64,000 nt of DNA from Giardia intestinalis (lineage: Eukaryota), in assembly GCA_000002435.2 (NCBI GenBank), contig CM018793.1, one strand, 5' to 3'. The notes below the pieces were generated by a model. The model did not search any database and was not told the origin of the DNA. It saw only the letters and a list, made by a program, of their open reading frames with translations. Below, piece by piece: positions 16,842 through 25,347 of the stretch. Numbering within the stretch: position 1 is the stretch's first letter; each line of letters starts with the position of its first letter. A program made the translations under genes and the position numbers.

Positions 16842-17531
16842 ATGTCGTTCTTTGGCTCCTCTTTTGAACAAACGCTAGCACCGGTTTCGCAGGCTAAGGC
16901 AGCTTGCCTTCCGACTCACATGACCGCCTCAAGTGCAGACATGCCGTACACAGCTCATGTTCTTTTTTCTTTACTGCGGGATGAAACTCACGCTCAGCTG
17001 ACACGGGTTCAGAACACAATAGAGACGTCCTGCAACGCTGTAAAGGATCAGCTCATACAGGTAATTCTTGGGGAGAATTCCTTCCGTCAAGAGCAGTTTT
17101 CAGAGCTTATTGGAGCAACCAACTCAATTGCTACAGGGCTGGAGCGGTTTACACAGCAGCTTAGGGATATAAGTGCCCAGATTAAGGGAGTGGAGGGCCA
17201 AATACAGACTCTAATGGCGGAGCTGGAAGCGGTAGAAGGTCGCTTGGATGAATCGCTCAGGGGAAAAATCGATTCTGCTCGCATAGAAATAACTGCCTAC
17301 ATTTCATCACTTTCCAACAGCATGAAAGCAGAAGGTGAAAAGGTTAGACAAAAGGGTCAAGTAGTAGATGGTGACACGGGTGCAAAGGCTAATGAGGGCG
17401 CTCACCTGAATGCGATAAGCTACCAAGGGTTTGCGCAGCATCTGAGCAACATGGGTACACAAATAACAATGACTCAGCCGTTTATACCGGCGCCAGACCT
17501 ATCAACAAGAAGTAATAGCGACCTCATCTAA
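16842..17531 (+). CDS. Hypothetical coiled-coil protein
   Basis: 229-aa ORF with an ATG start and a central heptad-rich region (IQTLMAELEAVEGRLDESLRGKID). The 3' end overlaps the convergent giant gene by 8 nt. Confidence 0.45.
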   Translation: MSFFGSSFEQTLAPVSQAKAACLPTHMTASSADMPYTAHVLFSLLRDETHAQLTRVQNTIETSCNAVKDQLIQVILGENSFRQEQFSELIGATNSIATGLERFTQQLRDISAQIKGVEGQIQTLMAELEAVEGRLDESLRGKIDSARIEITAYISSLSNSMKAEGEKVRQKGQVVDGDTGAKANEGAHLNAISYQGFAQHLSNMGTQITMTQPFIPAPDLSTRSNSDLI

Positions 17532-23500: not shown

Positions 23501-25347
23501 GCATAGTTCATTACTGGAATAATAGGCTTCGGTACCAGGGCTGTGTAGTACGCCAATCGATTTTGCGCCTCAGACGTTTTCGTGCCTAGCTTGATAACTG
23601 CACTGTGCTGAAGGTTCTTATGTACCACTGTCTCCGGTAATGCAGCGGTAATATCTAGGATATTATTAGGTGGTAAAGGACCAGGAGAACCATTGGCTAC
23701 TAATAGCTCATTCAGATGTAGGACAAGGGTCTTCCTGACCAAGGTCTCCGCCTCTTGAATTGAAAGCGGTTGAGGGCTTTCTTTGAGGAATAGCCTAATG
23801 AGCTCCTGAAAGTCTGATCTCCGTAACATCACAGTTCGCGGCGATAGACTGCGAAAGTTTTCAAGAATAGCATAATTCCGTTCTGGGAAGTATTCTTCTA
23901 TGAGTTTTTGAATGTCTAATGTCGCTATTTGGGCGTCCAAGGCCCTCTTTTTATAGGTCTTGACCTCTTCAGAGACACAACGATTCAAGGTTATAGTGTA
24001 AGTGTCATAGAGAGAGGTATATGCTGTCGCTTTGTTCATCTGCGGTGAGAGTGCTTCGTACGTGTTCTGGAGTGGCTCATTTGTGTCACAATTCAAGGCG
24101 TGCCCATCATTGTGTCCTGCTTCCCTGTTACCCTTGGAGCTGCTGTAAAGACGTAATAGACCGGTGATACCAGTGAATGAACTAGGAAGGCCTTCAAATC
24201 TTTGCCTGAACAAATTGCTGTCTTCAAATGGAGCAAAGCAAGTACTTTCAGAATGGATGACACTCCGCAGAGGAAATAAAAGAGGTCCAGTAATTGTGCG
24301 ATCTGATAGAGTAACAGACTCATCAGTTAACGCGGACGATTCCTCGCCTGCGTGATTCCAGCTGAGCTCGACAGGAGTAGACTGACAATCCTCATGTTCG
24401 GCTGATTCTTCTCTATTTCCTGCCAAGTTCGATTCACGTGGTCCACGTGTTTGCAAGACATTGAGAGAGATATCTCCTTCAGAGAGAGGTATGTTGTCTG
24501 CTACAGACGCAGGCTGGGCAAGTTGTGTGTCTGCCTTCTTGGGATCTGGAGAGCACAGCACCACAGCATCAACCATGGCACCTAGCAACACAGATAAGTG
24601 ATTTTGATCTGCTGGGGAGAAGTAGCTCATCCGTGTTCTATAGAGACGCATCATCCTAGGCCCAAGCACAGCCGTATCATACAAAAGGTGTAATGACGGG
24701 CAACCGAGCGTAACAATCATTGGTGGCATAACATCGAGCCAAACGGAATGTCCGCTGACATTATGTACTCTAGATGCGCGCAGATGGGCCATGTAAAGGC
24801 GTCTATGCATCCACTCACGAAGCAGCTCCTGAGCCACAGAAAGGAGAAGCGGGAACTCTATAGCGGTTTCGTTTATAAGATATTCGTGGAAGTCCTTCGT
24901 CTCAACCTTTGGGGCTTCGTTTTTGCTGTCGGATTTTCCCTTGCTCTTCTCTATGGGTTTTGCAGCGACCTCCTGACTGGGGCAATAAAAGTGTCGCAGA
25001 TTGATATCTAGTTCTGGGAAGGTGCAACTATATGAAGCATCTGACGTGCTAGATCCTGAAGTCAGAGTCACCTGCCCGCCGACGCACAAGTCCAAAGCGC
25101 GTAAATCGCTCTGTTCTATTCCATCTATCAATACAAAGGTGGTGTGCTCAACACCCAAGGATAGCGCAGCAGTGCGTTTGGCACTAACCACGTCCTGTAA
25201 AGAAGAAAGAAGCATCGTCTGCTTAGATGCACAATCAGCTGTGAAATCAAGATAGACAAGATCCTTGAACACCGGAGAAGATAAGTCGGCGGCTAAGGCC
25301 TCGGTACAAGGACCAACCCGACGGATGAGGAGGGGAACAATCCTCAT
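17524..25347 (-). CDS. Giant hypothetical protein (2607 aa), no recognisable domain
   Basis: 7.8-kb uninterrupted ORF with an ATG start at the complement of 25345-25347. The sense-strand ORF is continuous; the competing antisense ORFs (e.g. 20549..21220, 223 aa; 18497..18874, 125 aa) are short. By eye there is no kinase, ATPase, repeat or transmembrane signature. Confidence 0.65.
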   Translation of the reverse strand: MRIVPLLIRRVGPCTEALAADLSSPVFKDLVYLDFTADCASKQTMLLSSLQDVVSAKRTAALSLGVEHTTFVLIDGIEQSDLRALDLCVGGQVTLTSGSSTSDASYSCTFPELDINLRHFYCPSQEVAAKPIEKSKGKSDSKNEAPKVETKDFHEYLINETAIEFPLLLSVAQELLREWMHRRLYMAHLRASRVHNVSGHSVWLDVMPPMIVTLGCPSLHLLYDTAVLGPRMMRLYRTRMSYFSPADQNHLSVLLGAMVDAVVLCSPDPKKADTQLAQPASVADNIPLSEGDISLNVLQTRGPRESNLAGNREESAEHEDCQSTPVELSWNHAGEESSALTDESVTLSDRTITGPLLFPLRSVIHSESTCFAPFEDSNLFRQRFEGLPSSFTGITGLLRLYSSSKGNREAGHNDGHALNCDTNEPLQNTYEALSPQMNKATAYTSLYDTYTITLNRCVSEEVKTYKKRALDAQIATLDIQKLIEEYFPERNYAILENFRSLSPRTVMLRRSDFQELIRLFLKESPQPLSIQEAETLVRKTLVLHLNELLVANGSPGPLPPNNILDITAALPETVVHKNLQHSAVIKLGTKTSEAQNRLAYYTALVPKPIIPVMNYAYFEPLTNSLCLSQKLIEPNEDGVVLRTLENTNELVLKQSLLRNIQQYLLRHLQELCRLLDIPYDPISVLSTVVPSYVEWRNALEQFSPVSAPSELADPALVYSICYCYADSPASFNEFLHGKDGHNEQSASTGQPSYRISPHRVRKPNPISQFIDFIIETVTEACVATYRQVAEFANSKVNCQTAGSSSDDNLARSSLYLDNGEPYLVSSQQHALDSSLDSRPQGSRTKQRDSSSSRISPAVNPSLEAQCSETDDKSNHTVELEGLEPIMEENRGASASVSSCTNDMSLASLLVADSQWIYFSSDSIPCLMAQLGPVAPLKPESYKDFFTRYHCDAIRNDQKDVPQKGKPASSAAKDKGSAIQVDPAITPEDLAELNLELALSLILFELYGDEPSAFILNSLLGFLNSDYEDLIDEESYSKQKHPVTQLRLSGLKKHVKISVSAVYYAQTAGKGSHCTYLNYTSQNKNASLISRLREAISASCVEGLRKDSVGSVGKGKDSKQREQMPTTVVVEASAFSKSQYGRINSTPQRLSKTVFADFIKAKAQTSFSIHPNYSLRNYSTFYLTPNDKSSISSSPLQRRIDFYRMWASLFVQPESDLGTGDYADHFVMLSETEENISRIEVVSQKDSGDGLGPLTTAIPMTAKLNILFGDKSVGIIKQYTLTYILSDCSVFVDTSALQEPVPIPAHLTPEETERPANESSGNPSRTQSRSGARGSVKTVDANPVASSLVESSSSQNPAPQEPERALMCRIALEEDLLYTKRPDLARFALIAEFCGALTPSRSTACCNTDHIEFAMYSDGSCNVQCNGIVLVDLTFAENNESKIQVTAHEKLSSPNDSIDTLPNFISNIIYEIIGFLTEYGAAKSQSRHSTTSEKYSTRQDCNVKHSSAPFLFGDEVERSEISMEYARLVPNIASVVLARVPDDLFSDSAYSNETHVLLIELPIFNTFIVRFLVSKSTLFLLSNGDAVFIEGSYLHLFRSDTAFLSILQVRSSPSTCLVPTQGGSSAIPVYSSPLVLYASQGFPFWNVFFEQRKKWLVTRKIPERINFNPKSRPHLGQHNIERESMALKDTLTLARQMCNLAQKEYSEFPAVYPCYLDIFGTESVWRMHHEAFVTGTDSVVVPLRGVTRFLLGSPEVHAPDCRGHSISPYPPSLSLLDWTGNTIFCRLGCTFEPKITKFVTLTESVQQPERSLSKEKGASRKETSSTGTQSSKKTSKEPPRVATDTNTSAEQQSQDVASDALAKPPCTIVEKKLDCFNSVRPFLPPVIPPKVQADVVVELERVLQEREDKAMQRILKREQALNDVLEKQSVESAPRKDAKEKSPKKSNKDTNKPETTLKEEPLENDAPLEVHREIVDILSEVNPIKTYSALQLFFKHFSDISRQKMEQEAAMAVAQSSAKGKDLKNQVEPAFVSIPKVSSVYLSRQEHPQTAEGLLDDCMQDPNGIPLPCCPIISPRYFIYPISPDLRNALSYSVEDECMGYLRNCEPWVCLHDADISYLRYIGMLHQLIDSSNYTAISSRSSQAYFKISTTSKLSCLPRYLFSLPLSSIVCQILNTMRSALAFTNLPMTSALEDSPCDASTLSTTSRGKAGAKGVITRGGTHATVAQGIVLPPKLKGKSAWETGASDPSPLHVPFGERFLSLFDPNSPYLLHPGDKYAANVVEFIELHSFLTKGDLLCYQHLEQTKLNWKLSAAQRDIVIQSYQKMETTGIALGKALTSVIAILKKEKRQREREAMRELEQQEELARQMALFAEQHVRSNEEEKNEVSYDYSVDKPTKSARPRKHMNTKKPVDMALPKIANISPPPLDWKRQFNDEDLDVEYAALSVDELRRKSYVEKYPLLKYVPADIDPREKAMSSKMLAHQTIIQSTSGSSVLGSSKNNPTILRAIPTKINIRQKTFNVLLKNLSEDILSVSLTYDCNILNLSEPTGPLTLSPQTSIDLHFEVKLHRPTEIVVKGETLAGNSDSIVVSCVGKIMPTSTSSHSGLR

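Follow-up and report, generated by a model that had tools for sequence, protein, structure and literature searches.

The second-largest gene in a 64,000-nucleotide stretch of Giardia intestinalis DNA (contig CM018793.1, assembly GCA_000002435.2; hereafter the window) is a single open reading frame (ORF) on the minus strand, exceeded in length only by the ORF at 52151..60112 (2,653 amino acids). The complete coding sequence (17524..25347) runs from ATG through 2,607 codons to a TGA stop, and its 2,607-residue product is identical to GL50803_103818 of G. intestinalis WB (XP_001709374.1, UniProt A8B638), which is annotated as a hypothetical protein. A preliminary description of this DNA, made by eye from the letters, had recorded the length, the uninterrupted frame and the size rank, all of which were correct, and to these we add the strand. 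We propose that GL50803_103818 may be PF6/SPAG17, the head protein of a projection of the flagellar central apparatus, in the form of a hyper-divergent orthologue, and put the probability of this at roughly 0.45.

The gene is real. With the base composition of the window, a stop-free run of 2,607 codons would be expected by chance with a probability of about 1e-61, and the frame is conserved over its full length in the G. intestinalis assemblages, in Giardia muris and in Spironucleus. Peptides were also present, at low counts, in one of three replicates of a published list from a GlActin pull-down analyzed by mass spectrometry (F 2, G 2, DSP 0), which indicates low-level production of the protein in trophozoites. 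The same counts (2, 2, 0) were rejected as a sign of association with actin, and the list is used here as evidence of expression only. Missing annotation is the one thing that could be held in favor of a chance or degenerating ORF, and the probability of such an origin is practically nil, the idea having been refuted by the frame length, the conservation and the peptides. The locus tag was not found in searchable full texts, where text matches to "103818" proved to be PubMed identifiers within reference lists, nor was it found in the supplementary tables of a 2026 localisation atlas (608 Giardia proteins), the ventral-disc proteome, the encystation proteome or the mitosome interactome. The gene model itself is public as a hypothetical protein; as far as our searches show, its conservation across diplomonads and the lead to PF6/SPAG17 are new relative to the accessible literature.

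Orthologues in the G. intestinalis assemblages are 70-99% identical to the WB protein. A word-index search for homologues returned G. intestinalis sequences only, and missed three proteins that the query alignment itself contained, so that little weight can be put on its negatives for very long queries. When 1.84 billion cluster representatives were scanned exhaustively with HMMER, in a single iteration and with a profile of residues 1408-2607, five matches were obtained: the G. intestinalis representative, G. muris GMRT_15574 (2,294 amino acids), Spironucleus salmonicida SS50377_23061 (1,969 amino acids), a protein from a Logan assembly designated P0020 (2,730 amino acids), and a fragment of 149 amino acids. 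By BLAST, the G. muris, Spironucleus and P0020 proteins align collinearly with the window protein along its length, N- to C-terminus, with identities of 22-30%, and no homologue contains a Pfam domain. P0020 is a full-length relative that shares about 25% identity with the G. intestinalis protein, carries an insertion of about 50 residues ahead of the conserved core described below, and suggests that public read archives contain a diplomonad lineage not yet sampled. In JGI metagenomes, a scan with the R.HHE pattern of that core found no further relatives. Since the homologues are collinear from Giardia to Spironucleus, the gene is older than the split between Giardiinae and Hexamitinae and is not a novelty of G. 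intestinalis. The family is thus diplomonad-wide and, at the level of sequence, limited to diplomonads. The preliminary description had called the protein an orphan and a place to look for lineage-specific biology; by sequence the restriction to diplomonads stands, and a restriction to Giardia does not, given the full-length homologues in G. muris, Spironucleus and P0020.

Searches with the whole protein found no Pfam family at E ≤ 1, and seven tiles of it gave only noise at E ≤ 10. Walker A, CxxC and HExxH motifs are absent, self-BLAST revealed no internal repeats, and Kyte-Doolittle hydropathy over 19 residues peaks at 1.85 (residues 1555-1573), within a predicted beta-strand region and not in an obvious transmembrane helix. 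Searches of all PDB chain sequences with phmmer and with profiles gave no credible match to the family. The statements in the preliminary description that the protein lacks recognisable domains and any P-loop, repeat, transmembrane or cysteine-pattern signature therefore hold for every standard profile library and for the PDB sequence searches. A match of the family profile to PDB 5j5k_A, an entry titled "uncharacterized protein" (E 0.008), covers a short helical stretch at about residues 1966-2030 (PLEVHREIVDILSEVNPIK..., approximately 19258..19450 on the minus strand) and is probably due to chance; matches to glutamate synthase, BAG2 and similar PDB entries (E 0.2-1) were likewise treated as chance.

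The families that the preliminary description had named as ones that would make the gene ordinary (VPS13/BLTP, nucleoporins and HEAT-repeat proteins) did not turn up. As Giardia orthologues are frequently unrecognisable from sequence, the protein might be a very divergent member of one of these or of another pan-eukaryotic giant family, such as BLTP/VPS13, a nucleoporin, a HEAT/ARM solenoid or a CPAP/SAS-4-type G-box protein. We regard this as very improbable. The chorein, VPS13, ATG2, Fmp27, nucleoporin and HEAT/ARM families of Pfam had no match in four divergent members, and there were no VPS13, BLTP or ATG2 proteins among the fold-search matches listed. Against a HEAT/ARM solenoid or a scaffold nucleoporin stand the lack of Pfam repeats and of internal repeats, together with a predicted secondary structure that is mixed beta and alpha with long non-regular stretches and disordered linkers (at low confidence over most of the chain) and not an alpha-solenoid. 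The likeness to the G-box (TCP10) of CPAP/SAS-4 and to single-layer beta-meander proteins such as OspA and the MORN proteins goes no further than the fold class. The Giardia beta region lies in the middle of the protein and has few hairpins, whereas CPAP carries its much longer G-box at the C-terminus; there is no sequence similarity, and neither PN2-3 nor the architecture of coiled coil plus G-box is present. In addition, every Foldseek E-value was at least 0.2.

Conservation mapping across four lineages resolved nine modules (residues 1-270, 441-720, 1161-1280, 1365-1600, 1625-1795, 1881-2000, 2041-2160, 2241-2440, and 2481-2607), separated by fast-evolving linkers rich in S, P, K and E. All of the following coordinates are on the minus strand. 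The N-terminal domain (residues 1-270; 24538..25347) is kept from Giardia to Spironucleus and holds the segment called block 1 below. A second block (residues 441-720; 23188..24027) is 29% identical to Spironucleus residues 291-501 and has no known match. Best conserved in the family is a core of about 170 residues (1625-1795; 19963..20475), for which there is neither a homologue nor a confident model. Its motifs GQGF.(F/L)W, R.HHE, L.G..R..LG and SP..PS.S..DW.GNT...R.G are invariant from Giardia to Spironucleus and have no match in the PDB or in JGI metagenomes, and the core may be an undescribed domain. Toward the C-terminus follow a charged linker rich in K and E that is probably helical (residues 1890-1960; 19468..19680), a conserved block that includes IPLPCCPIISPRYFIYPISPD (residues 2041-2160; 18868..19227), and another with a predicted long charged helix or coiled coil at about residues 2335-2385 (residues 2241-2440; 18028..18627). 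The protein ends in a conserved beta-rich domain of about 100 amino acids (residues 2500-2595; 17563..17850), which is probably an Ig-like sandwich and which had weak, generic Ig-fold matches in two members.

A first AlphaFold2 model (residues 1408-2607, from five Giardia sequences) had a mean predicted local distance difference test score (pLDDT) of 29 and was discarded entirely. A second, of residues 1365-1800, was built from eight sequences that included G. muris, Spironucleus and P0020, and reached a mean pLDDT of 52, with values of 57-89 for residues 1365-1480, 63-85 for residues 1520-1600, and below 50 for the motif-rich core. The two higher-scoring parts consist of antiparallel beta-meanders and a long helix. 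A Foldseek search of the PDB with this model, a check suggested in the preliminary description, found no match (best E 0.2), the region at 20548..21255 (residues 1365-1600) included. Polo-box entries in the output were redundant copies of one protein at E-values of at least 0.2, which is chance level. PF6 was the top structural match of the mid-protein region, which is separate from block 1; the structural neighbours are generic.

PF6/SPAG17 had been named as a candidate before any test was made, on account of the size of the protein, its DG hairpins and an apparently ASH-like C-terminus. In structures from Chlamydomonas and mouse, the head of the C1a/C1e projections consists of PF6/SPAG17 together with a DPY30 dimer (PMC9113940, PMC12297659, PMC6548120). 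These heads lie on the outside of the central apparatus, opposite the radial-spoke heads, and without PF6/SPAG17 the C1a projection is lost and beating is crippled (PMC9113940, PMC12297659, PMC6548120, PMC7999657, PMC8175508). The complex also includes calmodulin, FAP114/119 (CFAP119) and SPAG6/PF16 (PMC9113940, PMC12297659, PMC6548120, PMC7999657). Similarity between PF6 and SPAG17 has been placed mainly in their C-terminal part (PMC7999657). A SPAG17 fragment, used as a query, retrieved genuine SPAG17 (9ijj_x) and PF6 (7n6g/7sqc) chains. When these were compared, four short blocks were all that they had in common (total phmmer E 5.9e-11), with most of the similarity carried by the segment matching PF14874, which was matched between SPAG17 and PF6. 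Given that PF6 and SPAG17 themselves share so little, an orthologue in diplomonads would be expected to be nearly invisible.

Block 1 of PF6/SPAG17 (consensus YY..LL..P.E..SVPL..H..LEQV; SPAG17 residues 424-456, PF6 residues 510-542) has a significant profile-profile match in the diplomonad family. It falls on Giardia residues 233-263 (MRLYRTRMSYFSPADQNHLSVLLGAMVDAVV; 24559..24651, minus strand), with 30 of 33 columns aligned and an hhalign score of 30.6. Over 600 column shuffles the mean score was 14.1 (standard deviation 2.3, maximum 23.4), which corresponds to a Gumbel p of 6e-5 for a search space of the whole protein, or to about 2e-4 to 3e-3 after correction for 4 blocks or 34 windows. 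The match is reciprocal, in that the diplomonad segment, compared with the entire SPAG17 profile, has block 1 as its best match (p 1e-4). Reversed-profile controls scored 12.5 and 15.6. The match holds without PF6 and is stronger when only the non-intestinalis rows are used (probability 50-58%), in which case PF6 alone selects the same site. The two halves of block 1, tested separately, land adjacent and in order, and the scores were reached by none of 200 shuffles for the N-terminal half and by 6 of 200 for the helical half. Among 177,635 PDB sequences the block-1 profile retrieves SPAG17 and PF6 only, which shows that it is not a common motif. Two independent weak signals, the block-1 profile match near the N-terminus and the top structural match in the middle of the protein, thus suggest a relationship to PF6/SPAG17. 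Other likenesses are the size (1,969-2,730 amino acids in diplomonads and 2,301-2,320 in PF6/SPAG17), the presence toward the N-terminus of a conserved block of about 30 residues (Y...L...P.E...SV.L....[ML].[ED].V), the alternation of beta-rich modules with long linkers that are charged or of low complexity, a small domain rich in beta-strands at the very end of the chain, and occurrence in organisms with 9+2 flagella.

A considerable body of results weighs against PF6/SPAG17. Block 1 is significant at the profile-profile level only and is not confirmed by HMMER: a diplomonad-only profile of residues 226-265 failed to retrieve SPAG17 or PF6 from the PDB, and per-sequence HMMER scores for block 1 were about 1 bit, no better than those of background ORFs. 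With the G. intestinalis rows alone, the best match to block 1 moved elsewhere (residues 2517-2539). The block also lies at about 10% of the length of the diplomonad protein, compared with about 20% in PF6/SPAG17. PF14874, the PapD-like/ASH domain that is the best-conserved feature of the family, was absent from all diplomonad members at Pfam E ≤ 10, and hhalign against the ASH domains of SPAG17, PF6 and FAP360 gave a probability of 0.2%, with scores at null level and an equally high reversed control; a C-terminal ASH domain, which had been read by eye, thus has no support from hhalign or Pfam. Block 2 (TDP..G...TTRED.V..V....G...V...DGTRIT) had a top hhalign score of 11.6 against a null mean of 13.4, and block 4 was at null level. 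For block 3 (PR.FV...DGSG.E.L......YL) there was a marginal match of 6-7 columns to its PR.FV start at residues 2073-2079 (score 20-23, p about 0.01); the sequence FAMYSDGS at residues 1412-1419, picked by eye as the DGSG site of this block, was at null level with hhalign.

Broader comparisons gave the same picture. Full-length hhalign of the diplomonad family with 12 SPAG17 sequences yielded probabilities below 1% throughout, and direct tests of sub-regions of the C-terminal third were at null level, with reversed profiles scoring as high as real ones. The SPAG17 profile is vertebrate-only: a SPAG17-seeded search collected 177 SPAG17 proteins, and the 120 listed were all vertebrate, most with PF14874 and none from Giardia. 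A collinear diagonal between SPAG17 residues 1487-1946 and Giardia residues 2073-2589, noticed post hoc, was rejected, since it comprised 5 of 34 windows, a number that was also attained in 3 of 40 null replicates when the choice of band is included. Matches between the K/E-rich linkers (SPAG17 residues 713-859, Giardia residues 1905-1966; z 5-6) were rejected as compositional. Nothing in SPAG17 corresponds to the best-conserved diplomonad core (residues 1625-1795), with its R.HHE and DW.GNT motifs, and the AlphaFold2 model comes from 8 sequences at the mean pLDDT given above. Membership of the PF6/SPAG17 family is accordingly not established, with ASH and two other blocks missing, HMMER unsupportive, generic neighbours and an eight-sequence model. 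As regards the label of orphan, one short profile match and one top structural match to a pan-eukaryotic family put it in doubt and are too uncertain to overturn it.

The C-terminal half of block 1 has an hh-xx-hh-xx-hh pattern, which is that of helices docking onto RIIa/DPY30-type dimers (LLGAMVDAVV in Giardia, within VLLGAMVDAVV at residues 253-263; LILHCMLEQVV in SPAG17), and as judged from this pattern it is a possible docking helix of that type. The significant similarity is limited to about 30 residues, of which the second half is this classic amphipathic helix, and PF6/SPAG17 is a known binder of DPY30 (PMC9113940, PMC12297659). GL50803_103818 could therefore be conceived as an anchoring scaffold similar to an A-kinase anchoring protein (AKAP), whose sole common feature with PF6/SPAG17 would be a segment that docks an RIIa/DPY30-type dimer (for example, the Giardia protein kinase A regulatory subunit or a DPY30-domain protein), and which would place that partner on a cytoskeletal structure without being a C1a head protein. 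The core MVDAVV of residues 253-263 resembles IVDAVI of the AKAP peptide Ht31, and Ht31 was placed best at residues 258-263 of the diplomonad profile. Its score was at null level, however, as were the similarities to classical AKAP helices in general, and the AKAP-IS and D-AKAP2 helices land elsewhere. Tested alone, the non-helical N-terminal half of block 1 (MRYYNDLLNPIPE) is more significant than the helical half, a PDB search with the block-1 profile brings up no AKAP, nor anything else besides SPAG17 and PF6, and the role of block 1 as the DPY30-binding helix of PF6/SPAG17 is itself putative. We consider an anchoring scaffold of this kind improbable.

It is also possible, and in our judgment only somewhat less likely than descent from a PF6/SPAG17 ancestor, that the protein is a giant scaffold specific to diplomonads and not descended from PF6/SPAG17, made of beta-sheet modules, coiled-coil or charged linkers and the novel core at residues 1625-1795. 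Such a scaffold might serve, for example, the long cytoplasmic regions of the axonemes, the basal-body complex, or nuclear and cytoskeletal tethers, and the resemblance at block 1 would then be due to chance or to convergence on a docking helix. This would fit the scan of 1.84 billion representatives, in which just five matches were found, all of them diplomonad or unassigned, the lack of relatives in JGI metagenomes, and the failure of every member to match Pfam or the PDB. It would also fit the invariant motifs of the most conserved part, which have no counterpart anywhere, the failure to find three of the four blocks of PF6/SPAG17, ASH among them, and the negative reverse test with HMMER. 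The exhaustive search, however, covered residues 1408-2607 in one iteration, so that absence outside diplomonads is only weakly established. Block 1 is a reciprocal best match (p about 1e-4) that passes the reversed and split-half controls, and an independent region has PF6 as its top structural match, both of which weigh against this explanation. Moreover, diplomonads build canonical 9+2 axonemes, and a head protein of C1a would be expected to have been kept in them. A more specific version, which we think unlikely, is that the family is a diplomonad invention in which the core of about 170 residues is an undescribed domain with no relative among the 1.84 billion representatives; it might be catalytic or metal-binding through an HHE triad, and might serve a diplomonad-specific cytoskeletal structure. 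Alternatively, the core could have been grafted onto an ancestral PF6-like chassis, adding a lineage-specific function at the central-pair head.

The neighbouring genes, which encode ESF1, Yip1 and an amino-acid transporter, suggest no functional link to GL50803_103818. A spacer of 85 bp (25348..25432; 74% A+T) separates it from a divergently transcribed gene for a NOP2/Sun (RsmB/F-type) rRNA methyltransferase (25433..26941), and as Giardia promoters are short and AT-rich, this spacer is presumably a bidirectional promoter region. At the other end, a convergent gene for a protein of 229 amino acids (16842..17531, plus strand) overlaps the 3′ end of GL50803_103818 by 8 bp and has weak matches of coiled-coil type to the Apolipoprotein and Baculo_PEP_C families. 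An antisense ORF within the gene (20549..21220, plus strand; 223 amino acids) has a GTG start and no Pfam match, and is most likely a chance ORF. The window contains five more very large ORFs, namely that at 52151..60112 (minus strand), mentioned above, and those at 45854..51475 (minus strand; 1,873 amino acids), 4777..9147 (plus strand; 1,456 amino acids), 37234..40896 (plus strand; 1,220 amino acids) and 42200..45826 (minus strand; 1,208 amino acids).

If GL50803_103818 is the diplomonad PF6/SPAG17, for which we infer orthology, localisation and mechanism together, it would probably work as PF6/SPAG17 does. It would be a large structural scaffold of low abundance, common to all sampled diplomonads, and the counterpart of a protein of about 250 kDa that forms the head of C1a/C1e with a DPY30 dimer in 9+2 flagella. 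Residues 233-263 would constitute a docking segment within the N-terminal domain, the amphipathic second half of which would bind a DPY30/RIIa-type dimer. The beta-meander sheets at residues 1365-1600 would give the projection head its rigid body, the modules would be kept apart by long linkers that are disordered or charged, and the C-terminal beta-sandwich would occupy the place of the PF6/SPAG17 ASH domain. In the eight flagella of Giardia, the assembled head would offer the surface that meets the radial-spoke heads and would tune dynein activity and waveform, as in Chlamydomonas and mouse.

About 40% of Giardia proteins lack annotation (PMC13322205), and in this very divergent lineage few proteins are harder to recognise than large axonemal scaffolds. 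At present the assignment amounts to an annotation-level result that would not surprise the field. If true, it would fill a gap in the parts list of the diplomonad central apparatus and provide a handle on the regulation of eight differently beating flagella in a parasite that relies on motility for colonisation and cytokinesis. It would also reveal which few residues of a protein of about 250 kDa are indispensable across eukaryotes, namely those of block 1, which is perhaps the DPY30 docking site, and the gene would then be ordinary in the sense of the preliminary description, as a hyper-divergent member of a known scaffold family. If the link to PF6/SPAG17 is false, GL50803_103818 would instead be a clean case of a giant protein that is ancient, confined to diplomonads and endowed with a new conserved domain.

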